DNA of 64,000 nt. Origin: Octopus vulgaris. Lineage: Eukaryota. The translations under genes were made by a program, and so were the position numbers. This document shows positions 2,221-62,229 of the stretch, piece after piece (positions within the stretch are counted from its first letter, which is position 1; every line of letters begins with the position of its first letter). The notes below the pieces were generated by a model. That model made no database searches. It saw only the letters and a list, made by a program, of their open reading frames with translations, and was not told where the DNA came from. Where the stretch lies: assembly GCA_951406725.2 (NCBI GenBank), contig OX597836.1:42470001-42534000 (forward strand), read 5' to 3'.

Positions 2221-3758
2221 CACTGAGATTATATCATAACGATGAGATTATATCATAACACTGAGATTATATCATAACACTGAGATTATATCATAACACT
2301 GAGATTATATCATAACACTGAGATTATATCATAACACTGAGATTATATCATAACACTGAGATTATATCATAACACTGAGATTATATCATAAATGAGATTA
2401 TATCATAACACAGAGATTATATCATAATATTGAGATTATATCATAACACTGAGATTATATCATAATATTGAGATTATATCATAACACTGAGATTATATCA
2501 TAACGCTGACATTATATCATAACACTGAGATTATATCATAACACTGAGATTATATCATAACACTGAGATTATATCATAACACTGAGATTATATCATAACA
2601 CTGAGATTATATCATAACGCTGACATTATATCATAACGCTGAGATTATATCATAACACTGAGATTATATCATAACACTGAGATTATATCATAATACTGAG
2701 ATTATATCATAACGCTGACATTATATCATAACGCTGAGATTATATCATAACACTGAGATTATATCATAATATTGAGATTATATCATAACACTGAGATTAT
2801 ATCATAATACTGAGATTATATCATAACACTGAGATTATATCATAACACTGAGATTATATCATAACACTGAGATTATATCATAATACTGAGATTATATCAT
2901 AACACTGAGATTATATCATAACACTGAGATTATATCATAACACTGAGATTATATCATAACACTGAGATTATATCATAATATTGAGATTATATCATAACAC
3001 TGAGATTATATCATAATATTGAGATTATATCATAACACTGAGATTATATCATAATATTGAGATTATATCATAACACTGAGATTATATCATAACGCTGACA
3101 TTATATCATAACACTGAGATTATATCATAACACTGAGATTATATCATAACACTGAGATTATATCATAACACTGAGATTATATCATAACACTGAGATTATA
3201 TCATAATACTGAGATTATATCATAACACTGAGATTATATCATAACACTGAGATTATATCATAACACTGAGATTATATCATAACACTGAGATTATATCATA
3301 ATACTGAGATTATATCATAACACTGAGATTATATCATAATACTGAGATTATATCATAACACTGAGATTATATCATAACACTGAGATTATATCATAATACT
3401 GAGATTATATCATAATACTGAGATTATATCATAATACTGAGATTATATCATAACACTGAGATTATATCATAACACTGAGATTATATCATAATACTGAGAT
3501 TATATCATAACACTGAGATTATATCATAACACTGAGATTATATCATAACACTGAGATTATATCACAACACTGAGATTATATCATAACACTGAGATTATAT
3601 CATAACACTGAGATTATATCATAATACTGAGATTATATCATAATACTGAGATTATATCATAACGCTGACATTATATCATAACGCTGAGATTATGTCATAA
3701 CACTGAGATTATATCATAATATTGAGATTATATCATAACACTGAGATTATATCATAAC
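2221..3758. repeat. 19-bp minisatellite (CACTGAGATTATATCATAA)n, about 80 copies
   Basis: Direct reading; variant units begin TAC, TAT or CGC(TGACA). Confidence 0.95.
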
Positions 3759-3779
3759 AATGCAAGAACAGAACTATTA

Positions 3780-8489: not shown

Positions 8490-10082
8490 GCCATTCAACT
8501 TCTTAAAACCCGGAAAAACCGTTACTGCAGAAACCTGTAGCGTAGTTCGGGGATATTCTCACTGTTTGAGAGATATATTAGAAATGATATCGCGTTAGAT
8601 AGCAACCATTTTCGGCTATTTGGATCCTGTTGTCCACTACTCTCATTGGTTGGCATTGGCGTAGTTTGTCTCTTGACTTATTTCGCGCCAATGTGTGAAC
8701 CAACCAATCAGAACTTTCCAATATAATCACGTGACACAGTCTTTTGGATTTTCTTCTGGAGCCTCTAGCAGGTTATAAAAGGCGCCAGCAAATCACAATA
8801 TCTTGGTCTTTGGTTCTAGTCCTTCTAAGGACTAACCTCTGACCACAGAGCGACTCAACCAGGTTCCAGCGACTCAACCAGTTCCAGTTCCAGCGACAGA
8901 CAACATGCAACAACTCAGGACACTTTCTCCACCGTCGCCATCACCATCGTCATCTTCACTCATGACGCCGTCATCAACACCGACGCCAAGTTTATCGTCG
9001 CCCTTCAACTTCATGTCGTCTCCACCAACGCCTATACGTACACAGCAACTCCCTCTGGTTTAGCTTATACGCAATTGTGATATTCACCAAGGTTAACAGC
9101 ACAGCCCCACCGGCGAGATCTTCTGTACCAATGGAATCTCAGCACAGCATTGAAGCCACAACCGCTACACGACATGTGTTCAACCGGCATTCCACACTTG
9201 TGACCCCCAACATCCTGTTCCAGAACGTACTGCGATCGTGTACCTGTACGAACAGGTATTTATCTCCGTCTGAAATACTCTGAGAGACTCTTTTCTATGC
9301 TCTGTATTTTGTCTAACACGCATACACCTTGTTTGTATTTATTTTCACTCTTGTAACGCTCACACGAACACACAGACACACATGTGCACGCACTCATACA
9401 CTACACTCTGCTACCACCCATACTTTATCCTATTGTACACTTCTGTAAATAAAAGCTATCTTTCTCTCAAGCAGTAGAACGGTTGTGTCGTCTTTCTTAT
9501 TTATTTTGGCACTTATTCATTTATACCGTATATTTCACTTATTCTTAGCAGGGTGACCGTGCGGCGTTCAAAAGGAAACATTTCTATCACCAACTCCTTT
9601 ACGTGCGGTCGTTTTACTACAAGTATATTGACATGAAATTGCCAAAATGTACAAAAAAAAACTTTTACTCCTCCGTCCAAACTGGTTAAAAGAAGGGGGC
9701 CAACCATTCTTCATGACAATGCTCGACCACATGTTTCACTAGAGACGCTCCAGAAGTTGAAGGAACTTGGCTACGACGTTCTTCCCCACCCAGCCTATTC
9801 CCCAGACCTTTCTTCTAACGACCATCAATTTTTCAAGCACCTTGATGGTTTGCTGCGAGAGAAGGAGTTCAAAAATCAAACCGATGCTGAAAGTGCGTTA
9901 AAACAGTTCATCAGCTCCAGAACTCCAGGTTCTTATGCTACCGGAATAAACAAACTTTTCACTCGTTGGCAAAAATGTGTTGATTGTAATGGTACTTGGA
10001 TGAATAAAATTTCCGCACTGTTGAAATATACTGTGATGAATTTCATGTTTCAAAACGTTGCTTACTTTTTACTCAGCCTGAC
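8490..10082 (+). mobile_element. Degenerate mariner transposon interrupted by an LTR-like insert
   Basis: FLKPGKTVTAE before the insert; ILHDNARPH, PHPAYSPDL and RWQKCV after it; mariner-like TIR near 10055-10082. Confidence 0.8.
8536..9621 (+). mobile_element. Probable solo LTR
   Basis: TGTAG...CTACA termini, several CCAAT boxes, TATAAAA near 8774, AATAAA near 9448; splits the mariner coding sequence; no clean TSD visible. Confidence 0.6.
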
Positions 10083-10094
10083 ATAGATACATAG

Positions 10095-16632: not shown

Positions 16633-17995
16633 ATAAAACGGTAAGATAACAAAAGAAAGAAAGAGACCTCAATATTATGTAAATAGAGGAAATTTATCTA
16701 TACAATATGTTACATTACTCGGTAGTCAAGATAAAACTCTGAGTTTCAGATGCCGAAGTGGAAATCCACAACACCATCTCTTCGGTTATCTGGCTATTTG
16801 AAAACGTTATGAAAAAATACCGTTAAAAATGAAGGGAAATTACTCTGTTATAACTCTGCTTTGCCTGCGTACTTATACATCGCTCGCATTTTTCGTCATA
16901 AAAATTATATAAAAATACATAAAAATATATAAAAATATATAAAAATATATAAAAATATATAAAATCTTCTTGGGACATAACACAGAAAGCATGTTCTATC
17001 CGTTTTCTTTAGGGGACCAAAAACGTAACAGAAATTTAGTCACATGTGGGCATGATCCGAAAAGTTCTGTCCTTGTATTTAGACATGTGGTAGGGTCTAA
17101 GCTGCTTTTCCAGATAAGCCATCTCTCCATGTCGCATAAACCGCACCTTCCGCTGCCGTTAGTATAGGGCTTACATCTGGCCAAAATCTTCCATTGTATG
17201 TTATAATCGACACCTTTATCTCTTAAAGACCAAATATGATTGGATAATTGTGTCGCTTTTCTTTTGTTCCAGTGCCTAAAGCTCAAAGTGTGGTTATTGA
17301 ACCTGGCCTTGAAATTACCCTCTGTCAGGCCCACGTATTTCTTCGTCAAAACGGTGTCTTTAGTGGTTATAGAGTTTACGGTAGCTTCATATATGATGGT
17401 CTTGGACATGCAAGCTCCATTTAGCGGGCACAATTCTTTATTCCTGCATGAACAGCTGTTTTCTTCTTGTGTTTTTTGTATGTTATGATTGATTATGTTT
17501 TTAAAATTGGTAGTTGAACTAAAACTAATTTTTAAATTGTGTCTATTGAAGAGTTTCCTATAAGCATGGTTAACTGGAAAATGTCTATCTATCAGTGCTA
17601 GGAAATATTTACCTATATTGAAGGCCACCTCGGGTGAGTAAGGGGGCGTAAACCAGATGACCTTCCTATTTCTATTATTCCTTTTCCTTATTGTTGGGCT
17701 GGTGATAGGTGTATATTTTATTTTTTCGCTAAAACCACTATCTTTTAAAGCTTTATTATAAACTGGGGCAACGCTATTGAAGATGTCCTCATTAGATGAG
17801 AGGCTAGAAATCCTCTTACTAATATTTTTAACTAAATTTTTGAATACTATAGGGGGATGGCATGAACCTACATTAATATAACTTAGTCTATCATTGGGCT
17901 TCCTATAAGGCTTATAAATATTATTATTAAGATCTAAGGAAACGTCTAAGAAATTGACAACCGTCAGGTTAGTGTCTATAGTTAGTGTCTATAGT
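16630..17995 (-). mobile_element. Penelope-like element, 5'-truncated: RT thumb, GIY-YIG endonuclease and terminal region
   Basis: VNFLDV...YRKP...S.HPP, then IIYEAT...KYVGLTEGNFKARFNNH and CGLC..E motifs; hammerhead-like motif at 16729-16791. Confidence 0.9.
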
Positions 17996-20549: not shown

Positions 20550-22973
20550 TATTTATATATATATAATATAAATACTATATAAATATATGCATATATAAAT
20601 ACATATATGTACATATCTACATATATATGTGTATATACATGCATCTATGGGCACAGGACATCAAACAAACCTAGACACAATGAGAAACGAGAGCATAAAA
20701 AACAAAAAAAAAATAGAAAAAGAACTTTTTTCGAACAACGAAAAAAACAAACAGAGAAACGAGACATGCGACATAAAGAACATTCCCTTCATCAGTTGTC
20801 CCCTGTTTTATCTACACCACGATTCGAAGGTAAGGACAAGATGCGACTTCATTAAAACAGTCCTTCCCGCAAGGCAAATTAAATTATAATTTGGGATTTT
20901 TTTGTGGAGGGTGAAAGTGGTAACAAAAGCAGGACAGTGAGAACAAAACAGTAACAACAACTGGTGAGGGTTGTTAAGCCAAAACGATGTAAAGTGGTGA
21001 TCGCTGGAAAATGGGCTTTGAGAAGAGACAGATAAAAGCACTTCTTGTCTTTAGGAAGGAAGTGGAAGAAAGAGAGAATGGCCGTTGGTCACGTGTGAGC
21101 AACGAGAATGTCAAGGAGGAAGAGTGAGAGAGAGGGAGAACGGTGAAGAGGAAAGGAGAAGAATAGGGCATGGGTGGGAGAGAAAAACAGAAAGAAAGAA
21201 CAAGAGAGGGAGATAGATAGACAGAAAATTCCGTAGGGCATCCCCATGGTCCAACGTCCTGTCCCCTCCGAACAATGCAGCAAAGTGCTTGTGAAAGACC
21301 TTGCACATTGCCCTTCGATTTCCTGTCCATGTTCATTTGTCACAGACCTAATTGTAGCATCCACGCCACGTTGAGTTTCTACCGAGCGAACCCACCCGGT
21401 AACGTTGATACCCTCGCCACCCAATGCACGTACCTTAGCCCGAACTCTGCATCCTTCGTGTTTCACATTACATTGAGGTGTCGGTCTAAGGCCGATCTCG
21501 CCGCTAAAATTTGGGATGCAGAGCCCACCCTCAGCGCCTCTTCTAATGCCTTAACTAAGCTTCTTTCTACTCTCTTCTTCTCTAAACTTAACTGTTTACT
21601 AAATCTAAGTGACTCAGTACAAATGGCTCTTTTGAGGGCTCCTCACCACCAGTTATTTAACACAGTGCCGGTCTCTTCAAGGACTGTTTGCAAACACTTT
21701 TGTCCTGTTGTAGAAAGACACCATGCCAGACATTATATATCCAACAAAACATTACACATTTTATATAACTTAAATGAATTTTCTGATAATGTGAGAATAG
21801 CATATATCCCCATGGATCTGGGATAGCTAACTTCAAAGTTAGGGTTACATATATTATGTGTATTATATTATATTATTGGGTATATTATCGAGGTATATTA
21901 TCTGAGAAGAGCTTTTAGACAACTTATGAAAGCAATTGACAGGAAGTATAAGCCTACAGTTAGACTTCTGGAAGTTCAGCCTAATGGATGGTGTGAGTAA
22001 CATACCTGTGTCACACAACACACACATACAATGGGTTTCTTTCTGTTCCGGTCGACCAAATCTACTCACAATACTTTGGTTCAGGCTGAGGCAATAGTAG
22101 AAGATACTTGCCCAAGGTGTCATGCTATAGGACAGAACCCTCACTCTATATAATTGAGAAACTAACGTCTTGACCATCGAGTTATTTAGTAGGTAATTTA
22201 CTCACTTCTAAGAATCCAGTCCAACACCTACTTTAATTTTCAAAGGATTAAGGATTCGTTTTTAGAATCTTCTTGCTTCTGCTCTTAATGACCTGTAGGG
22301 ACACTATATATCTTTAAGCAACCGCAATATACAACGAAATATATTAAATGCTTTTATAAGTCAATACTGTTTTCTCCTGTGTTAGCAGTACTATTAAATC
22401 ACACGTTAAAGTCATCTCTAAAGATTTCCTTAAGAAATTATAGCCAGCACTCATTTGCTTCAGATACAAAAATGTCATAATAAACCACTGCTGGTTACAA
22501 TTTTCTCCTGAAAATCTAAAGAGATAACCGTAACGAGCTCTTACTTTTGTTTCCAGTCATACTAATGTTTTTTGGTTTCAGTTTCAAAGATGTAAAGAAA
22601 ACTTCCAAGATATCCAGCACGACCATTACTCATTTTACTCTTGATCTAACAAAATCAGTTCCTTGATTAATTAACAATCTATCTGGGACACAAGCAATTC
22701 AACAGCAGAATCCTCTACGACTTCTTCGAACCCTCCATCATTTGCAAGTGTCCCATCACCTAAGTTTGATGTAGACTTTATACAAGTGGAAAATTTATAA
22801 AATTTTATTTTTCTAATCATCATACATAGTTGAGGGTTCCACTTTATCCCATGACACAACAATTATATCTTCTGTTTATCTTCACCAGAATTCCAGCTTT
22901 TGAAAATTCAGAAAGACGAAAGAAATTTCTAAATTATCAGTATGGCAACACCATATCGATTACCCCCAATTAC

Positions 22974-23120
22974 ATGAGACAGCAAGGCAATTCTGGCAGA
23001 CACTTTGTTGGACGACATGATGAGAGGGAAAAACTGAAGATCTTGATCAAGGATGAAGATACTCAAATAATACAAGTTTATGGACTGCCTTATGTTGGCA
23101 AAACAAGTCTTGTGAAAACT
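22974..23120 (+). CDS. NB-ARC/STAND-TPR gene copy B, coding exon 1 (FVGR motif, Walker A GLPYVGKT); the ATG at 22942 is out of frame through a 1-bp deletion
   Basis: Acceptor at 22581/22582, GT donor at 23121 (phase 0); C5 run where A and C have C6; the next in-frame ATG is at 22974 (MRQQGNSG...). Confidence 0.8.
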
Positions 23121-24297: not shown

Positions 24298-25323
24298 GTC
24301 TGTCAAGAATTGAAGGATGAAATCAACCCCGCAAGACTCCACATAAAACACATCCATATTTCTAATAATAGCAGTTGGTCTGATATTTCCAACATGTACA
24401 ATACATTCACCAATTGTTCCAGTATCACCAACACGAAATGGAAAATTTGTATTTTTGATGATTTCCAGAACATTCAAGAAAGCTTCCTTCCAGGTTTCCA
24501 GGAGCTTTGCGACAATGACTTTCCACTGCACCCAAATCTAAAAATCATTCTCATATTAAGTGGTGGAGAACCATTTCAGTTTGATGGAATCAGGTTTGGA
24601 AAGTGTAAAGTGAGTCCATTGTCCATTGGAGATGCCCAGCTTCTTTTCGGTCGCTGTTCAGACATTGAGACGGATGATGAGAACAAAGAACAAATACACA
24701 ACATCATCAGATATGCCTGTGGCCTGCCAGGACTTCTTATTTACTTTGCAGAAAAAATCTCCCAGTTTCATCATCATTTCTCTTTTAATGATATCTACAA
24801 AATGATTTGTGATGAAACCAAGCTCAATGACTGGCTGGACGAATGTACAATTAACAGACGTAATATTAAGCAAGAAATGGACAAGTACTTTTCTCAACTC
24901 TCTCACGAACAGCAAGATGCTATCAAAGTGCTTTCATATTTTCCTGGAAGATTTGGTATTGAGGAAGCTGTTGAAATGACTGGTTCTTCTAGTCAACCAG
25001 CTTCAATGATACGTGTTCTGATGCCGCTTGTTGAACAAGGTTTGATCAGTTCAGATTTAGAATTACAGAATTTCCAAGTACAAGAATTAGTACGTGTACT
25101 TTCTATGCAACAGATTGACAATGTACACAGCAATGATTTGGTAAAGCTCAAATATACAAACATTATCGGGAAAAGTTTGATGAAGGCTCAAGATATTTAT
25201 GATAAAGGCCTCATATATGAAGCACTTGGAATAATGAAGAATAACTGGGAAAATATTTCATTTATCTTGAAGAAAGGGATTGAAGCACCCTCAGATGGTA
25301 GGACATATGGAGTTTATTATGAG
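24298..25323 (+). CDS. Copy B coding exon 2: NB-ARC core (Walker B ICIFDD, GLP motif CGLPG, winged-helix region) and first helical repeats
   Basis: CAG|GTC TGT CAA acceptor, 1026-nt open frame, GAG|GTAAGA donor; joins exon 1 as GKTSLVKT-VCQELK, typical of STAND P-loop domains. Confidence 0.9.
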
Positions 25324-28214: not shown

Positions 28215-28371
28215 ATAACATTAAAAGCCTCAAATATACTGATGCTATGTCACCCTAGAGATTCAAGACAGTTTTTCCAAGCATGTCTACAAAACTCCCT
28301 GTTATTTGGTAATGAAGAAGAACAAGCGTTTATGAATATAGCATATGGTGTATCATTGACAGATTTACCAG
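28215..28371 (+). CDS. Copy B coding exon 3 (helical/TPR-like)
   Basis: TTTTAG|ATA ACA...CCA G|GTATGA; ITLKASNILMLCHPRDSRQFFQACLQNSLLFGNEEEQAFMNIAYGVSLTDLP; conserved in copy C. Confidence 0.85.
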
Positions 28372-30314: not shown

Positions 30315-30462
30315 GTTATGGAGGATACAAAGAAGCCATGGAGCACTACAAGAAGGCTTTGGATGTAATGAAATCGAGAAACATCCAGTACCGACAGATG
30401 CTGCTGTACAATAGCATGGCTTACAATGCCTATATGCGGGGCAATTATGTGGAAGCCTTGAA
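30315..30462 (+). CDS. Copy B coding exon 4 (TPR)
   Basis: CCACAG|GT TAT...TTG AA|GTATGT; GYKEAMEHYKKALDV...LYNSMAYNAYMRGNYVEAL fits the TPR pattern; conserved in copy C. Confidence 0.85.
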
Positions 30463-32278: not shown

Positions 32279-32388
32279 TTTTGCAGAAACAGGTTACAAC
32301 ATGACCGTTAATGATGCGAGCCCCCAGATGGTGCAGGATGCGAAGATCAGATGTGCCTCTACCCTGGCCTACAACCTCTCATTTGTTG
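32279..32388 (+). CDS. Copy B coding exon 5 (TPR)
   Basis: CCTCAG|T TTT GCA...GTT G|GTAATA; phase 2 to phase 1, compatible with both neighbours; FAETGYNM...ASTLAYNLSFV. Confidence 0.75.
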
Positions 32389-33922: not shown

Positions 33923-34036
33923 GTTATTATGATAAATGTGAGAAATTATTGACAGAAAACCTAGAGAAAATGTCAGACATGACTACTCCTCTTTTATCTA
34001 CAATGCTGAATACAATGGGTGTTAATTACGAAAGGA
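33923..34036 (+). CDS. Copy B coding exon 6 (TPR)
   Basis: (TTC)n-TGCAG acceptor, GTAAGT donor, 114 nt, phase 1-1; GYYDKCEKLLTENLEK...STMLNTMGVNYER. Confidence 0.85.
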
Positions 34037-36442: not shown

Positions 36443-36586
36443 ATGGTTTTCAATATGAGAAAGCTTATGAATTTTATAATGCTGCACTTAGTGAAAGATT
36501 GAAAATTGTTACTGTAAATCCCAAGATATCTGTGATAGCATACTGTAATGTAGCAAAGTTATTATCCCGAAACTTTGGCAAACACA
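36443..36586 (+). CDS. Copy B coding exon 7 (TPR)
   Basis: CAACAG acceptor, GTAAGT donor, 144 nt, phase 1-1; QYEKAYEFYNAALSERLK...AYCNVAKLL. Confidence 0.85.
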
Positions 36587-37047: not shown

Positions 37048-37159
37048 ATAAAGCACTTCAACTCCTGTTCAGTGCCAAGAATATCCAAAAGAAGCATAGC
37101 TGGCTACACATGAACACCTCCTTGGTATTGCATTACATTGGTCGTGTGTATCTGAGAAT
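37048..37159 (+). CDS. Copy B coding exon 8 (TPR)
   Basis: TTCCAG acceptor, GTAAGT donor; KALQLLFSAKNIQKK...SLVLHYIGRVYLR. Confidence 0.85.
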
Positions 37160-38914: not shown

Positions 38915-39179
38915 GCATGAAATCTCCTACAGCCTGACATTTTTTCATGAGGCTTTGGAGATCTACAACCAGATAAACCCAAACTACACCGGAAAGATGG
39001 ATGTCATTCATGCGATTGCGCACTGCTATCTGCTGAAAGAGGAATTCGATAATGCCACGAGTTGTTTCCAGGACATATTGAATGGTAACACCGACCATTT
39101 GTTGAGCAGCGTATCAGCGGTTGAAGGTTTCTCAATGGCTTTAGAACACCTGGTTTATCTCAATTTGGAAAATCCTCAG
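38915..39179 (+). CDS. Copy B coding exon 9 (TPR)
   Basis: TTCCAG acceptor, CAG|GTATGG donor (phase 0); SLTFFHEALEIYNQI...IHAIAHCYLLKEEFDNATSCFQDIL. Confidence 0.85.
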
Positions 39180-39469
39180 GTATGGTTAATTATCACATAT
39201 GTTGTAATTGTTGATTAATTGCGGGATTCATTGATGATTGATAGATTGATGGATTGATTAATGGATATATGGGTTGAGTGAAAGATGGAGGGAGGGATTT
39301 CTGCAGTGGTTTTTGTTCCTTTTGCTGAAAGGTTTGCAAGGCACCAGTAGGCCTCAAGAGACGCATTCCCGTCCATAGAACATGATTACTGCTTTAGTTC
39401 ACTGCACCCTCAGTTGTCATTCACGATGAGAGAATCCATCATAGCTATATTTACAAATTGATAATAATA

Positions 39470-41414
39470 ATAATAAAATCAATTCGATTTAAAATTAAAT
39501 GGAACTAAAATTAATTCTATTTAAAAATATAATCACTCATCAGGTCTAAGATAATAAATAATAAAAAATAATAATAGAATAAATGTACTTATCTTAACTT
39601 ATATTAATTATCAAATAAATATATAAAATAATACGTGTATTAACTATAAATAATCGAAAAGCATGTAATAATATTTCTTAAAATAAAAATGTAACTTATC
39701 TTGTCGAAGGATTTTCGTGAACTAAAAATTTAAACGTAAACCGTCGAACTTAGCGTCGATATAAAATATATCGCGTGAAAATATGGCGTAATAGAATTTA
39801 TAGAAGAAATAGATAGAAATATGTATTTAAGCTATTAAAATTACAAATGTATTTTAGCTGTAAGAACAAGGAAAAAAATTAATTTTAATATATCATTAAC
39901 TGGAAAATTTGTAAAGTCTAAATATTTTAAAAACTAAATACGTAAAATACATAATATAATAAACGTAAATTAAGCTAAAATTCTATAATTTAATCTATTT
40001 TCATTAATCAATTTATTTTATAAACATCTAATTTTCAATTTATTCTAATTATGTAATATAGACAATATAATCTCGTGCTAATTTATACACATTTTACTAC
40101 TACAAATTATAACTACAGCAATTAGTAACATAAAATAGGGTTTATATATATATACACAAATTAGCTAAACTTATTATGTAAGTAATTTAATTTATGACTA
40201 TAAATTCTATTTACACCATATTTTCACGCGATACATTTTATATAAACGCTAAGTTCGAGGTTTTACGTTTAAATTATGTAATGAATAAGGTAGAAATGAC
40301 TTATGATGAAGTTAATGTTGTTATAACGGCTATGTTGATTAGATACAATAATAAACTGGGCTACGAAGGATACTAGAGACTTTTTTGATATAGCTATGGG
40401 CGCACCCGATTCTGCACAGCCAACTGATTTAGTAGGTATTTATTTATTATCGGAATTTCAATTAGAAAAATTAAAGTTGGAGGGTGGTCTATATAGGGAT
40501 GACATTTTATTAATAACTAAGAATTGCACCAATACAACACTAGAATTATATAAGAAGAAACTATATAGTTTTTTTTAAAAGACATAGATTGAGTATTACT
40601 ATATATAATGAGAACTATAATGTTAATTATTTAGATGCTAATTTTAATTTAATAACAGGTAAAAACCAACCATTCCATAAAATTAAGGAAAACCTTAGAT
40701 ATATTAATGCTAATAGTAATCATCCACCCTCTATTAAGAAATCATTGACAGCTGATATAGGTAAAAGAATATCGTTGCTTTCTTCTAATTTTGAGATTTT
40801 CCAAAAACACGCACCTTATTATAATGAAGCCCCGCGGGAGAGGCGATGTAATAATAATATTAAATTCTTTAATAATTCTAAATATGATTATAATATAAAA
40901 GATTATAATATAAATGATTCTTATATTTTTTATAATAAGCCTAACATTAAGAATTACGATACGTTTTATTTAGGTAATTATGGTATTAATAATATGTATT
41001 ATGATAATACAAAACATAAATATAATAATAGACTAAAAAATAAAATAAAATTTAAATCATTTAATGATAATAATAAATTTAATAATATAAAAAATAAATA
41101 TAATAATATTAATAATAAGAACAAAATTTGGTTAAATATTCCCTATGGAGCTCAAGTTAAAACAAACATTATTAAAGAGATTTTAATTATAATTGAAGTA
41201 TTCGTTAGAGATAATAAAAAATATAATAACATTTTTTTCTAGTAATAATTTTGGATTTGGTTATTCTTCTACTAATAATGTTGGTAACATTATTTCTTCT
41301 TTTAAGTATTTGGTAGATAAAATTAAGGTACTTGGGTGTACCTTATACACACTTTTACATATACATATATACATATACGTATACATAGACATAAATATAC
41401 ATACACGTATACAT

Positions 41415-41494
<80 letters not shown>

Positions 41495-41700
41495 GTTTAT
41501 GTATATATATGTACATGTAAAAGTTTGTATATATGAATGTATTTATATTTATAACTTAACCTTATGAACTTTCTAAATTCTCTGACGAAGTACCTTAATT
41601 TTATCTACCAAATACTTCAATTCACTAGAGGGATGGAAGGAAAGCGGGGTACTGTGACCTCATGACTGAAACAGCTGTAAGAAACTATTCTACTTATTAT
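39470..41700 (+). mobile_element. Degenerate Penelope-like element in intron 9 of copy B
   Basis: MGAPDSAQ..DLVG, LYRDD, VNYLD, SNHPP and WLNIPY motifs of PLE RT; terminal hammerhead motif. Confidence 0.8.
41578..41683 (+). ncRNA. Hammerhead ribozyme motif (Penelope-associated)
   Basis: TTCT-CTGACGA-AGT...ACT-GAAA-CAGCTG (palindromic stem III)-TA-AGAA. Confidence 0.6.
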
Positions 41701-42275
41701 GTTCTATGTTATATATTTTAATAATTACTGGTATTTTTATATATATAAAGAATAATTTGTTATACATGTATGTATTTTGTTATAATTTTTTAAATACATA
41801 GGCGCAGGAGTGGCTGTGTGGTAAGTAGCTTGCTAACCAACCACATGGTTCCAAATTCAGTCCCACTGCGTGGCATCTTGGGCAAGTGTCTTCTACTATA
41901 GCCCCGGGTCGACCAATGCCTTGTGAGTGGATTTGGTAGACGGAAACTGAAAGAAACATGTCGTATATATGTATGTTTGTGTGTGTTTGTGTGTCTGTGT
42001 TTGTCCCCCTAGCATTGCTTGACAACCGATGCTGGTGTGTTTACGTCCCCGTCACTTAGCGGTTCGGCAAAAAGAGACCGATAGAATAAGTACTGGGCTT
42101 ACAAAGAATAAGTCCCAGGGTCGATTTGCTCGACTAAAGGCGGTGCTCCAGCATGGCCGCAGTCAAATGACTGAAACAAGTAAAAGAATAAAAGAAAAAA
42201 GAATAAAATAAATATAATATAATGACTAAAAGTTGCTGAACACCATCTCTTGGTCCCCTTCATTTTCTTATTACC

Positions 42276-42327
<52 letters not shown>

Positions 42328-43115
42328 CATGTAGGTTGTGCTTGTGCTTACGTAATGAGTATTGATCATATACTTACACAAATAATGACGACGTCACAAT
42401 TTTTGTGTAGAGGCGCAATGGCCCAGTGCTTAGGGTGGTGGACTCGCGGTCGTAGGGTTGTGGTCATAGGATCGCGGTTTCAATTCCCAGACTAGATGTT
42501 GTGAGTGTTTGTTTATTGCGCGAAAACACCTAAAGCACTACTAGGCTCCGGCAGTGGGTGGTGGCGAACCCTGGTGTACTCTTTCCTCACAACTTTCTCT
42601 CAATGTTTTCTCCTGTTTCTGTTGTACCTGTATTTCAAAGGGGCAACGTTGTCACACACTGTGTCACGCTGAATCTTCCCGAGAACTATGTTATGGGTAC
42701 ATGTGTCTGTGGAGTACTCAGCCACTTACACATTAATTTCACGAGCAAGCTGTTCCGTTGATTGGATCAGCTGGAACCCTCCTCGTCGTAACCGACGGAG
42801 TGCCACGAATATATTTAAATGTTCTTCAGTATTGATAACAAACAATAATATAAATAATAATATATATAATAATAATAATATATATATATATATATACATA
42901 TGCATAGATATATACCGAAATTTATAAATCTATAAATAAGGATAATATCGATATTTAAATAGCGATCTTATCAAGTGGCCAGCATTGTATTTACTGCGGT
43001 GTTTATTTTGACCATATCGCGCATGGAGCTGTTTGGCAGGCAACTTAAACTGGTCTTGTACATACGTGCACATATAGGTATGTATGAGCGTTCGTATATG
43101 TAAGTATAACGTATG

Positions 43116-43214
<99 letters not shown>

Positions 43215-43459
43215 AAAAAATGAAGTTCGAAAATGCTGCTATATTAGACAAATTTTTAATTTTTATATATACATTATTTATTTAACATGTTTCGGTTCTT
43301 GAAATGATGAACCTTATCAAAAAAAAATTATATATAAAAAAGATAGTTCATGCTATCAAATATAAAAAAATTCATATATAATATACATTAGAGTCAGACA
43401 TCAAAAGTTCATATATAGTGAGGTGAGTTCATGCTATATGTTTAAAGAGTATGATGTAG

Positions 43460-43747
43460 TAGTTCATAGTGGTGATATGCATTCAATATAAAAAATAGTT
43501 CATAGTGGTGATATGCATTCAATATAAAAAATAGTTCATAGTGGTGATATGCATTCAATATAAAAAATAGTTCATAGTGGTGATATGCATTCAATATAAA
43601 AAATAGTTCATAGTGGTGATATGCATTCAATATAAAAAATACTTCATAGTGGTGATATGCATTCAATATAAAAAATAGTTCATAGTGGTGATATGCATTC
43701 AATATAAAAAATAGTTCATAGTGGTGATATGCATTCAATATAAAAAA
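43460..43747. repeat. 36-bp minisatellite (TAGTTCATAGTGGTGATATGCATTCAATATAAAAAA), 8 copies
   Basis: Direct reading; nearly perfect units with no spacers. Confidence 0.95.
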
Positions 43748-43948
43748 TTGACGTTCTTGAAAAAGCGAGGAATTCATTTTATATTTTACCTTGAGCAACT
43801 GTGATGACTTTTGGTCGGTGTCCGCTCGGACAGTTCTGGCGGACCTTGTGAATTGTTTGGGTTTTATATCACCTGTTAGGTGGCCAGAATGCATATATTT
43901 TTTACAAATATATACCCACTCGTATACGAGCTAATCTTATTATAAATT

Positions 43949-43981
<33 letters not shown>

Positions 43982-44452
43982 CTATATATATATATATATC
44001 GATATATATAGGCGCAGGAGTGGCTGTGTGGTAAGTAGCTTGCTAACCAACCACATAGTTCCAGATTCAGTCCCACTGCGTGGCATCTTAGGCAAGTGTC
44101 TTTTGCTATAGTCCCGGGCCGACCAATGCCTTGTGAGTGGATTTGGTAGACGGAAACTGAAAGAAGCCTGTCGTATATATGTATATATATATAAGTGTGT
44201 ATGTATACGTTTGTGTGTCTGTGTTTGTCCCCCTAGCATTGTTTGACAACCGATGCTGGTGTGTTTACGTCCCCGTCACTTAGCGGTTCGGCAAAAGAGA
44301 CCGATAGAATAAGTACTGGGCTTACAAAGAATAAGTCCCGGGGTAGATTTGCTCGACTAAAGGCGGTGCTCCAGCATGGCCGCAGTCAAATGACTGAAAC
44401 ACGTAAAAGAGTGAAAGAGTAAAGAGTATATATGTATGTATTTATTTGCCGA

Positions 44453-44525
44453 TCTGGTATATTCAACTGAAGAAGGCAGAGCTTCTCATGCAAAGTCAGA
44501 AATCCAGGATCTTCAATTATCCAGA
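44453..44525 (+). ncRNA. Hammerhead ribozyme motif about 250 nt upstream of exon 10a
   Basis: TCTGGTATATTCAA-CTGAAGA-AGGC...GTCA-GAAA-TCCAGGA-TC-TTCAATTATCCAGA; stems I and II have mismatches. Confidence 0.55.
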
Positions 44526-44769
44526 AATATCTTTTTTTGCTAGATAATTTTGTCTCTCTGTCTTCTCTCCTAGCGCTGTGGCTTTTGAGCCACGGTTTGG
44601 ACTGCTATTTCAGCATGGTGCCATCTCTCAGATACCCTAATTTGTAGTTTTAAATAATTTTTACCTTTCTATGGCATTTATTCCCATGTTGGCCACTTGA
44701 TGAGATCGATATTATCCTCATATATATATATACATATGTGGCTTAATTTCACTTCATTTTTATTTCTAG

Positions 44770-45090
44770 AACCAGCTGATTCATATGAAGAATATTTTGA
44801 ACCATCTAAGACAACTATTGAAACAAAAAGTAAATGAGAAACAGAAGCAACGATATGCCGATGCTATTGCTAAGTACCACGCCTTGAAAATACTCCTGGT
44901 AGATAAACTCAACCAAAATGAAGAACGGGCTGGACTCCTCATGGACTCAATCCCTGTTCTTTGTAATCATTGCAAGACCTTCAGGCAGTATTTGAATTGT
45001 TCTCAAGAGAATTATATTCATAAACTTTGCGGACTGCGATCTAATTTATATGAAATCGACATTCAACAACGATTAAAGATTGTAGAATAA
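44770..45090 (+). CDS. Copy B terminal coding exon 10a (helical segment plus Cys/His motif)
   Basis: TTTCTAG|AAC CAG acceptor in phase 0 matching exon 9; open to TAA; AATAAA overlaps the stop (45086-45091). Confidence 0.8.
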   Translation, partial: NQLIHMKNILNHLRQLLKQKVNEKQKQRYADAIAKYHALKILLVDKLNQNEERAGLLMDSIPVLCNHCKTFRQYLNCSQENYIHKLCGLRSNLYEIDIQQRLKIVE

Positions 45091-45254
45091 AGAATTACAC
45101 TCTCAGAGTGGTTAGCATTAGGAATGTCATCCTGCTGTAGAAACTTTACCAGATCAGATTGGAGCCAGGTGCATCCTACAGGGTTGCCAGTCCTCAGTCA
45201 AACCGTCCAACCCATGCCAGCATGGGAAACGGACGTTAAATGATGATGATGAAG

Positions 45255-45301
<47 letters not shown>

Positions 45302-45327
45302 TAATTTCACTTTCTTTTTATTTCTAG

Positions 45328-45645
45328 AACCAGCTGTTTCATTTGGAGAATCTTTTGAACGAAATAAGACAACTACATAAACGAAGTGTAAATGAGAAAC
45401 AGAAGCTACGATATTCCAATGCTATTGGCAAGTACCAGTCCTTGAAAATACTCCTGGTAGATAAACTCAACCAAAAGGAAGAACGGGCTGGACTCATGGA
45501 CTCAATCCCTGTTCTTTGTCATCATTGCAAAAGTTTCATGCTTTATTTTAATTGCTCTCGAGAGAATTATATTCATAAACTTTGCGGACGGCGATCTAAT
45601 TTATATGAAATCGACATTCAACAACGATTAAAGATTGTAGAATAA
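45328..45645 (+). CDS. Copy B alternative terminal coding exon 10b (tandem duplicate of 10a)
   Basis: Same TTTCTAG|AAC CAG acceptor, intact frame to TAA, AATAAA at 45641-45646 and again near 45785. Confidence 0.75.
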   Translation, partial: NQLFHLENLLNEIRQLHKRSVNEKQKLRYSNAIGKYQSLKILLVDKLNQKEERAGLMDSIPVLCHHCKSFMLYFNCSRENYIHKLCGRRSNLYEIDIQQRLKIVE

Positions 45646-47313
45646 AGAATGGTTTATGATTTTACATTTTTGGTATGATTGACTACATTATAGCTGTGGG
45701 CAGTTTAATAGATGAACTCAAACATATCACAGTCTGATGAAGGATAAGCAAGCCGAGACTTCGAAGCTGTTCTTGTTAAAGAATAATAAATAAAACTATT
45801 AAAAAGGTTGCAAGACGCAACGACAATTTTAGGACAATAAAAATAAGAAAACCGTGGAAATTTTACCGGTGAGTGTGTTACTTAATAAGGCACAAAAAGA
45901 AAATGACTCTCCCCAGACACAATAGAATATGCTTCAACACACGAACTCATATAAAGACTCCTGCAAACCAAATCCCAAAACGAAAAATAATAAATAAATA
46001 CTCGAGAAAAAGTATTCAGTTTAATGTAAAATTATTGTCAGATAACCAGATATTGGATAGCTGGATGGTTATCTAAAACACATTTGCTTCCGAGTCAGAG
46101 ACGGAAGGCATAGAATAAATATTCGACTGTTCCTTGCGGCAGAAGGTGACAAAATGCCACATTTCGTTTGTGGTTGTTGTAAAAAGGAGAGAGCGGGAAC
46201 GAAATGAAGTCACGGAAAATAATTGTGTGGAATTTACTAAGAGTTACGTCCCTTGGTCTCTAAATTCTTACGTTTGGCTATAAGAATGAGAATCTGTTGG
46301 GTAGAAATATGTGTAGGGTGTTAAGGGTTTGGTACGTGTGTAGGGCTGATACATGTGTCGGAGTTCTTTGGTGGGGCTGGAATAGGGGTGCAGATGCCTG
46401 AACCTATAACCCCATGTTTGGGCATGTATGCACATGTGAGTCCATATGTATATAGTGTTTTTTGAAGGCACGTGACTTAGTGGCAAGGAGCATTGTTGGG
46501 GCGAGCGGCAAGGGCAGCAGCTGCTGCTGTCGTAGTTTGATGGCCATTGTACTTTGAATGGCCCTTTTTATGTTGGGTATCAAAATCCTGTTAGAGTTTA
46601 CTTAGTTGTTCATCACTTCAGGCTGAATAGAGCAAGTACCAGTTATGTACTGAGGGAAATATAATTCAGTTCATCCTTGCTACCCTCGAAAAATTCATAG
46701 GAGCCCCGTGATTAGTCTATGTCACATGACTGGATTTTGTCACTCCACTGTGGTCATGCTGTAGCACTTGTTTCGATATCAACCTCAGTTGTTAATTTGG
46801 TACACATTTTTGTCAAATGCTTGGGAGTTGAGTGTACCTCGAGTTACGTTCCTTTTTCAGGAGTTATCTCCTCCTAGAGATGAAGCACAAGATATTTGCA
46901 CCAATGTCTTTACGTGGCACTCCGTCGGTTACAACGGCGAGGGTTCCAGTTGATCCGATCAACGGAACAGCCTGCTCGTGAAATTAACGTGCAAGTGGCT
47001 GAGTAATTCACAGACACGTGTATCATTAACGTAGTTCTCGGGGGAGATTCAGCGTGACACAGAGTGTGACAAAGCTGGCCCTTTGAAGTACAAGTACAAC
47101 AGAAACAGGAAGAAAGAGTGAGAGAAAGTTGTGGTGAAAGAGTGAAGCAGGGTTCGCCACCATTCCTTGCTGGAGCCTAGAGGAACCATAGGTGTTTTCG
47201 CTCAATAAACACTCACAACGCCCGGTCTGAGAATCGAAACCGCGATCCTACGACCGCGAGTCCGCTGCCCTAAGCACTGTGCCCCCACACCAATATCACA
47301 GACACGCAAACAC

Positions 47314-60709: not shown

Positions 60710-61545
60710 CTAGCAGAATTGCCCGGCGATGCTCGGGGCTGAAAGTACTGTTAATGATTGCACTGAATTATGATGATTATTCAGGCAAATATCGATATAA
60801 GTTTACGGTGGGAGATAAGGACTTAACGATCAAACGTGTGCCATTGCATTGTTTTGGGGGAACCAAATTTCTATAGGGGCACCAACTTTAAGTTTGAGAA
60901 TGTGTGGTGGTAGTCCGGTGGGCTCAAAGGAATTGAGTACCTCTATTGGATAGTTGATGACGTCCTCTGGGTCAGGAGTTGTATCGATAGACTTATATAC
61001 ATAGACATCCCCAGGAATGAGTTTTAGCATTTCATCATTAATATGGTGAACAGTTTTATTCCTCGGGGCCAGAATAGCCCTTTGGCCAATCCAATCCATA
61101 TTCTGATAATTAGCTTGTAGATCTGGGAACACTGCATCTCTGAGATCAGAAGGCGTTTTAACAATGGTACAAATGGAATCGATGGCAATATTACCATTTT
61201 CATCCCCTGGTATTTTGCCTTCGACAAGTGCAAGGAGGGTGTGAGAAAATGCTGCTGATGTGATATTACGTTGCATATGAGCACGCATATTGGTGTGAAG
61301 TTTGAGAATCTTCACCAGTGGCCACAATGTGGATGACTTAAGACACGCACTTACTGCATCAGTTCTAGTCCCTTTGGGAATAACGGGAAGTGTTTGTCGG
61401 AAGTCCCCTGAAAGAAGAAGTGTTATGCCTCCCATGGGAGCTGAAGAGTGTTTGATGTCTCTGAGAGATCTATCTAGTGCCTCAAGAGCACCTCTGTTGG
61501 CCATCGTGCATTCATCCCAAACGATAAGCTTGCATCGTCCAATTT
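60710..61545 (-). mobile_element. Helitron 3' fragment (PIF1-like helicase) with intact 3' end
   Basis: IVWDE, GDFRQTLPV, AILAPRN and LPPHILKLKVGAP motifs; hairpin CCCGAGCATCGCCGGG followed by CTAG at 60710-60713. Confidence 0.9.
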
Positions 61546-62229
61546 TAAAACAATAACCAAAGCCCCTTCTCCGAAAGGGGGAGGGTTACGGTTTACAATT
61601 ATTTAACAAATGCAACACAACAACGTTTCCCTGACGAGGAACCAACAAACGTGATTACAATAGTCAAACAGTAATAATAATAACAACAAACCTTTTTAAT
61701 GTATCCCCATTTATGTGAAACCACTTATTCAAGTTCAAGCCATTGATGCAATTTTATACGAATTGCTAATACACACACACATAATAAGGGTGAAAAATTG
61801 AATATTAAGTTGATTATTATGAATCGAAATCCAGTGGTGTAGCATATAAGACCATAGCGGATCTTCTTCTAGCAAAAAGGATGACCAGTATTAATTACTC
61901 TTCCCTTTTATATAAATACTTTCACTTTAATTGTTGCACACTTGCAAAGAGAAAGGAGGAGAAAGTGTAGTGGTAATAGTAGGAGTGAAGCACTTGAAAT
62001 GAAAGAGGGAAATCGTAAAATATTGAGTGTTCTCGAATTTTTGCTTAATTGGGGGTGAAATTGAAAAAACTTTACATGCCATGACCCAATGGAATCTACT
62101 TGGAAAAATGATAGGTAAATTCCAATTGAAGAAATTCTATATTGTAGAATTGTATAAAAAACGAACGGTTTGGGAGGCAGAGAAAATCTGCCTTTTATCA
62201 TAAGAGATGCATTGAGTACTGTTCTCACT

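Follow-up and report, generated by a model that had tools for sequence, protein, structure and literature searches.

Why does one gene in a tandem cluster of Octopus vulgaris end in two homologous last exons, where did the second come from, and is it used? The preliminary description of this DNA had proposed that a single NLR-like gene makes two isoforms of different specificity by choosing between them. We followed up this proposal in the window, the 64,000 nucleotides at positions 42,470,001-42,534,000 of C23, the contig that carries the cluster, and placed the ten coding exons of the gene, here called gene B, using the O. sinensis orthologue as a guide. The features are as follows, all but the first in window coordinates.

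C23:42,146,000-42,730,000, two head-to-head arrays: STAND-NTPase + TPR cluster, 16 genes
22942..23120, + strand: gene B exon 1 (coding), with Walker A GLPYVGKT, placed by the O. sinensis protein guide
24298..25323, + strand: gene B exon 2, the remaining STAND NTPase, with Walker B-like ICIFDD, GLP motif and winged-helix region
28215..28371, + strand: gene B exon 3, helical linker
30315..30462, + strand: gene B exon 4, TPR
32279..32388, + strand: gene B exon 5, TPR region
33923..34036, + strand: gene B exon 6, TPR region
36443..36586, + strand: gene B exon 7, TPR region
37048..37159, + strand: gene B exon 8, TPR
38915..39179, + strand: gene B exon 9, TPR
39180..44769, + strand: last intron upstream of X1
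44770..45090, + strand: last exon X1 (106 aa), CxxC preceded by two predicted helices, joined to exon 9 in transcript contigs
45092..45095, + strand: 4-nt microhomology where the 3' end of X1 meets the middle of a repeat element
45092..45327, + strand: spacer with the second acceptor, containing the 3' portion of a dispersed repeat of high copy number and a (TA)n run
45328..45645, + strand: last exon X2, 105 aa, with 0 private base substitutions and one private codon deletion
45646..46491, + strand: family 3' flank/UTR, about 850 nt common with paralogues, with AATAAA at 45785 and 45836

Exons 2-10 of gene B have open frames and GT-AG ends. In exon 1 as assembled, a C run is one C shorter than its O. 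sinensis counterpart, so that the frame changes at codon 9, and an in-frame ATG follows at codon 12, 3' of the shift; the missing C may be an assembly error or may mark a null allele. The 3' end of exon 9 carries one base that is absent from every other paralogue and thus tags B transcripts.

A search with X2 found 17 last-exon copies on C23 within about 580 kb and one distant copy on C24, and a search with the NTPase exon found 16 copies on C23 and one on C24. Mapped in 664 kb of contiguous sequence, the cluster consists of a minus-strand array of 10 genes and a plus-strand array of 6, which meet head to head near where the window begins. The pair of homologous, in-frame terminal exons behind one donor is found in gene B only, which gives 17 last exons against 16 genes on the contig; neighbours A and C, for which duplicated last exons had been considered, and the other paralogues have one last exon each in the cluster search. 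The nearest paralogue of gene B differs from exon to exon and, to judge from the sequences, gene conversion is frequent in the cluster.

Several cluster copies are near-identical to each other, exon 9 falls into two sharply distinct types, and no exon 1 was located near two of the copies. Gene B and two other copies lack one base of the exon 1 C run, a fourth copy has one base too many, and three copies carry additional 1-nt indels; these indels and short C runs may be assembly errors or null alleles. The single distant family member (C24:10,772,853-10,785,891) has 27-33% identity, its NTPase exon and last exon lying 12 kb apart. The window also holds long minisatellites at 2221-3762 and 43460-43748, whose repeats measure about 19 bp and about 36 bp, as well as open frames that we take to resemble a PIF1/Helitron-type helicase (60833-61585, - strand), a retroelement end with endonuclease (16999-17988, - strand) and a mariner-type transposase (9637-10083, + strand).

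Both last exons are intact, as had been described: the open frames of X1 (44770-45090, 106 aa) and X2 (45328-45645, 105 aa) lie 558 bp apart, each is preceded by the acceptor TTTCTAG/AAC in phase 0, and each ends in a TAA stop overlapped by an AATAAA (45086 and 45641). The X2 acceptor, with 18/20 pyrimidines, is as rich as those of functional paralogues, and the Octopus vulgaris protein at NCBI matches X1 at 100%. A search of Rfam with 43900-46500 gave one chance match only (E 0.59). The overlapping AATAAA had been read as a dedicated poly(A) signal for each exon; it is the coding Glu plus stop in the last exons of all 15 close paralogues. Nor do the transcript contigs described below support a poly(A) end of its own for X1: they go on for 120+ nt past its stop, while behind X2 the contigs leave the examined stretch. 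The 3'UTR of the family is absent from X1 beyond 5 nt and complete in X2, and the flank at 45646..46491 is likely the common end of both isoforms.

The pair had been taken for a duplicated exon whose copies then diverged, and the shared variants, the flanks and the exon tree favour instead capture from a paralogue, with an AU test as the reservation (below). X1 and X2 differ at 32 bases, and for 24 of these both states are present in single-exon paralogues, the private bases numbering eight in X1 and none in X2. With O. sinensis and O. bimaculoides proteins added, X1 has six residues that are unique among 21 other members, all within its first 38 codons, and X2 has none; the two N-terminal types of the exon are separate proteins in O. 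bimaculoides. Most of the differences between X1 and X2 are older paralogue variants that have been shuffled by gene conversion.

Homology of X1 to the paralogues ends 5 nt past its stop. The spacer with the X2 acceptor (236 nt) matches the terminal part of the last intron in 10 paralogues; it starts inside a repeat element, at 4 bases that also stand just before this point in 10/15 paralogues. Of the 15 other paralogues, 10 carry the element (73 matches in 664 kb) in their last intron, and these element-bearing introns share 92-96% mutual identity over about 1.8 kb. The B intron before X1 has only its first 76-134 nt and dispersed repeats in common with other last introns. In the exon tree X2 groups with exactly the 10 element-bearing genes and X1 with four element-less genes on a branch with support 96/99 when the outlier pG is left out; with pG included there is no well-supported branch. 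A recombination signal was detected within the last exon (p 0.0004), and the AU test did not reject X1 and X2 as sisters (p 0.19). Because of the 24/32 shared variants, the paralogue-type lead-in and the join at a 4-nt microhomology, we interpret the pair as a recombination chimera rather than a diverged duplicate, and on this sequence evidence X2 was likely captured from a neighbouring copy by recombination.

A different order of events also fits the same sequences: a local tandem duplication of the last exon, after which X2 and its lead-in were overwritten by conversion from neighbours, X1 keeping an older sequence. The AU result is compatible with this course, as is the frequent conversion that makes the nearest paralogue change exon by exon. 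It requires an extra event, however, and it leads one to expect the repeat element upstream of X1, where it is absent, the B intron being unlike the 10 element-bearing introns; we regard it as improbable.

The use of the two exons was followed in contigs of four sequencing runs (24 listed) placed on window 44700-45700, three of the runs being guessed to be RNA and the fourth probably DNA; a microsatellite before X2 was skipped in the placement, hiding the sequence that precedes X2. In two of the three RNA-like runs a contig starts at the X1 acceptor with a loose end that is the private exon 9 end of gene B, bearing out the predicted junction 39179>44770, and a contig of the third starts at the same acceptor and is compatible with this junction. 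In all three RNA-like runs (3 studies, 2 organism labels), contigs pass from the X1 end into the spacer with 0 mismatches; their short side has 30 letters, one less than the bridging rule asks for, and 27/30 words in this part are unique in the 664 kb.

These contigs also bear on whether the pair is an artefact, in which haplotypes or paralogues were stitched in tandem by the assembler. The several near-identical copies and the 1-nt frameshifts, which resemble homopolymer errors, would be in keeping with faulty assembly, and the fourth run gave no junction-bridging piece among the matches listed. Against this, the step from X1 stop to spacer recurs with 0 mismatches in runs from three studies, and the annotation of O. 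sinensis, an independent species, has both exons at one locus, so that an artefact is largely refuted and very improbable, and with it the suspicion that two haplotypes had been assembled in tandem.

The second predicted junction, 39179>45328, fared otherwise: no branch from exon 9 to X2 was compatible with the contig shapes in any of the three RNA-like runs, contigs being a form of evidence that drops rare branches. In a 31-mer graph simulation, such a junction would limit the X1 contig to 21 nt upstream of the acceptor; the observed reach was 344, 52 and 37 nt, the last being the simulated value for X1 plus other paralogues with no X2 junction. X2-identical contigs were present in two runs at a depth similar to that of X1. 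Read-through alone predicts an X2 contig that begins 60 nt upstream and ends at 45469, and in one run 56 nt and 45468 were observed; in another, the X2-identical contig has 149 upstream letters, which the read-through model leaves unexplained. A weak search for the exon 9>X2 junction in short proteins gave 4 matches among 96 candidates, none of them transcript-derived.

RefSeq isoform models are usually based on junction reads. For O. sinensis, RefSeq LOC115223560 has isoforms X1 and X2, XP_029650057.1 (858 aa) and XP_036368273.1 (857 aa), which are identical to residue 752 and differ only in the last exon, and in the X2 model the codon deletion specific to X2 follows the B body. Only 9/111 31-mers from the 5' portion of X2 are unique in the cluster, making cross-mapping easy. 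Two further O. sinensis models, P0028 and P0005, have the body of one paralogue and the last exon of another, and may be recombinant genes, cross-gene splicing or annotation errors. The idea of one gene with two isoforms thus survives in part: the X1 junction is present in contigs and both forms are modelled in O. sinensis RefSeq, and common use of both junctions is what the contigs do not support. X1 is the demonstrated form, and X2 is a predicted isoform and probably a minor one.

It is also conceivable, and in our judgment fairly unlikely, that X2 is never spliced in, being a passive 3'UTR remnant that gives a poly(A) site, with the RefSeq X2 isoform built from mis-mapped paralogue reads. 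The contig shapes of all three RNA-like runs agree with such a remnant, as do the ease of mis-mapping, the appearance of P0028 and P0005 as mosaics of neighbouring genes and, weakly, the result of the short-protein search. Against it stand the X2 acceptor with 18/20 pyrimidines, the frame that is open in both species, the frame-preserving indel, and the RefSeq model in which the X2-specific deletion comes after the B body.

Do the two exons differ by selection? The preliminary codon count was right (23 replacement codons, 2 purely silent, one 3-nt indel), and the conclusion drawn from it, divergence almost only by amino-acid changes, was not confirmed: path counting gives ~5 silent changes rather than 2, the silent steps having been under-counted because several of the 23 replacement codons carry two or three changes. 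The dN/dS between X1 and X2 was 1.3-1.6 with p 0.33-0.44, not significantly above 1, which is the outcome that had been named beforehand as refuting the proposal. By NG86, with Sd 5.25 and Nd 26.75 on 63.8 silent and 251.2 replacement sites, dN/dS was 1.32 (Fisher p 0.33), and by maximum likelihood omega was 1.57 (LRT p 0.44); neither test supports diversifying selection between the copies, and a p of 0.023 arises only with the earlier count of 2 silent changes. Across the family the mean dN/dS of the last exon is 0.68, versus 0.38 for the NTPase exon, and dN exceeds dS in 10/87 pairs of single-exon paralogues as well.

Site models were fitted on trees that ignore the recombination present in the last exon, which inflates their results. 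For the last exon M2a was not preferred to M1a (p 0.088, and 0.43 without codon 17, a triple-change codon), and the fit without X1 gave p 0.0008, due to codon 17 alone. Some positive selection was favoured in exon 2 (p 1e-8) and exons 4-6 (p 0.0045), with ~4% of codons in the NTPase exon (24298-25323) at omega ~6 across paralogues, and not in exons 7-8 (p 0.099) or exon 9 (p 0.45). The last exon is relaxed and variable, and selection for the difference between X1 and X2 has no significant sign.

The clustering of variable positions 27/30/31/34/37/38 on one helical face was confirmed (R=0.75); compared with every 6-set drawn from positions 24-44, a range chosen after the data had been seen, it has p=0.007. 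Residues 775-799 are modelled as a helix in a low-confidence model (pLDDT about 60-70), and the six variable positions of helix 2 lie on the face opposite the large hydrophobic residues, the predicted exposed face. The one-face pattern fits a binding stripe but equally plain surface exposure, as in any amphipathic helix.

These data bear on the original model, in which regulation would select one of two C-terminal sensor modules held apart by diversifying selection. It draws on the O. sinensis models for both isoforms, the one-face clustering, the six residues that X1 shares with none of the 21 other members, its private base changes (7 replacement, 1 silent), and the site models of exons 2 and 4-6. 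Several results count against it: the pairwise dN/dS is not significantly above 1 and the family mean is below it, the last-exon site models turn on the one triple-change codon, the 7:1 ratio of private changes accords with an omega as low as 0.55 (p 0.22), the variable face lies where any amphipathic helix would vary, recombination inflates the site models, and the exon 9>X2 junction was not seen in contigs. A regulated specificity switch is thus possible but unsupported, and we consider it doubtful.

The product of gene B has an N-terminal STAND NTPase followed by TPRs. The Walker A consensus GxxxxGK[ST] is present as GLPYVGKT at 48-55, with G48/G53/K54 kept in 43, 43 and 42 of the 44 distant homologues that have a residue there (64 aligned), and the Walker B consensus hhhhD[D/E] as ICIFDD at 110-115, variable among homologues (D in 25/50 at 114). 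A GxP motif is present as GLP at 202-204, with P in 56/56 homologues, and the winged-helix region lies within positions 16-316, over which the family profile matches PH0952. Profile comparison gave E 2.9e-6 with PH0952 (6mfv) in the NTPase region and E 6.5e-7 with plant At5g66900 (8yl6). The B orthologue scored 18.4 bits with Pfam NB-ARC, below the curated cut-off of 23.5, which two homologues passed (26.0 and 37.2 bits). The sensor-1 Arg and MHD, which we take to be NB-ARC motifs, are missing in B, with ILILSG lacking the Arg and VQE in place of MHD; by its motifs the domain is best described as a divergent STAND NTPase and not a canonical NB-ARC.

C-terminal to the NTPase, Pfam matched TPR_12 (54.8 bits) and no LRR, and the NTPase begins at residue 22 of the RefSeq model, leaving no N-terminal signalling domain. 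Assignment as a bona fide NLR (NACHT or NB-ARC plus LRR) was ruled out, with TPR_12 in place of LRR and no N-terminal signalling domain. What remains of the NLR-like label is a protein with a STAND/NB-ARC-like NTPase and TPRs.

No Pfam family matched X1 or X2 at cut-off. The CxxC of the last exon (window 44962-44973) is kept in 27/30 and 31/32 of the distant homologues with a residue in these columns (64 aligned), and two helices that continue the solenoid are predicted before it with low confidence; the last exon is likely a capping helical hairpin with a putative metal site at the CxxC, and not an established ligand-binding module. An AlphaFold2 model built on 13 close sequences had a mean pLDDT of 41, which is too low to support a search by fold or a map of the surface, and residues 700-858 matched solely bacterial TPR or unnamed clusters in the ESM Atlas (0.90-0.91), a lead only. 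Homologues of the same layout occur in abalone, scallop, oyster, clams, snails, argonaut and one hemichordate (18 of 20 clusters looked up bear a name), several extending into long low-complexity tails. A candidate immune role of the cluster proteins is likely, on architecture and tandem expansion only.

On balance, and with modest confidence, we favour the explanation that in gene B the last-exon end of one paralogue (X1) was recombined onto the last-intron end, last exon and 3' flank of another (X2), with X1 as the default, X2 likely serving as 3'UTR, and the X2 C-terminus made only if the first acceptor is skipped. The two paralogues would have been joined once, by microhomology-mediated deletion or unequal exchange. 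One pre-mRNA would then offer two acceptors 558 nt apart, with one poly(A) region behind X2 shared by both forms. Use of the first acceptor would give the default product with X2 in its 3'UTR, presumably not a target of decay because no intron lies downstream of the X1 stop; skipping to the second would replace 105 residues with a paralogue-type C-terminus, giving what would be the minor isoform. The AU result (p 0.19), the unexplained 149-nt lead of one X2 contig and the fact that both exons are open in two species count against this explanation.

By analogy, the protein would work as an NLR-like switch whose NTPase is kept closed by the TPR/C-terminal region until a ligand opens it, and, lacking a signalling domain at its N-terminus, it would depend on a partner. 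By comparison with TPR-sensor STANDs (PMC6468293), the C-terminal region could bind a ligand or hold the NTPase closed. A broader and quite speculative reading is that the family represents undescribed, mollusc-wide, effector-less STAND-TPR-CxxC sensors, with 16 copies in Octopus and recombination at the scale of exons, in which the captured last exon has made two paralogous C-terminal modules into a splice switch, kept in two species, that changes binding or the ease of firing; the new alternative exon would then have arisen through gene fusion and not through exon duplication.

The intracellular immune sensors of cephalopods are poorly described, and the cluster provides 16 STAND-TPR genes with exon models and mollusc homologues. 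The pair clearly illustrates, with a breakpoint that can still be read and an event that can be dated, how a join between paralogues can give rise to a homologous alternative last exon; its importance would be greater if the second isoform were regulated, and as the data stand a single dominant form is favoured. RefSeq already lists both isoforms as uncharacterised models, and what is added here is a map of the cluster, a capture junction legible in the sequence, and the negative outcome of the tests for selection. Among open-access titles we found none on the octopus STAND-TPR family, which supplements of cephalopod genome papers could list.

Gene B can be compared with several known systems. 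Human homologous 3' exon substitutions include 77 C-terminal swaps among 236 events (PMC9741552), and the octopus pair resembles these in having homologous terminal exons behind one donor and a difference confined to the C-terminus, often in exposed helices; it differs in that X2 likely came from another cluster gene in a young event (1/16 paralogues), X1 has no 3'UTR of its own, and use of X2 is predicted. Animal and plant NLRs (NACHT-LRR, NB-ARC-LRR; PMC3879445) share the STAND switch, C-terminal repeats and lineage-specific tandem expansion, whereas gene B, by the definition given there, lacks LRR, NACHT and an N-terminal death-fold/TIR/CC domain. Coral TPR/NACHT tandem expansions by non-allelic recombination (PMC12314368) are similar in their TPR-rich arrays and unequal exchange near repeats, but concern other families, and a captured last exon is not reported in the portions available. 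In brown algae, tandemly expanded NB-ARC-TPR candidate receptors have a repertoire widened by exon choice (2023 work cited in PMC11378527), so that tandem expansion and exon choice are common to both; there TPR exons are shuffled and spliced combinatorially, whereas in the octopus a single terminal exon pair occurs in one gene. A further comparison is with PH0952 and MalT, STAND NTPases that carry a TPR sensor (PMC6468293; PDB 6mfv), in which the NTPase is likewise followed by TPRs; in contrast to these, gene B is an animal gene of many exons, with no DNA-binding output domain and with an extra C-terminal CxxC module.
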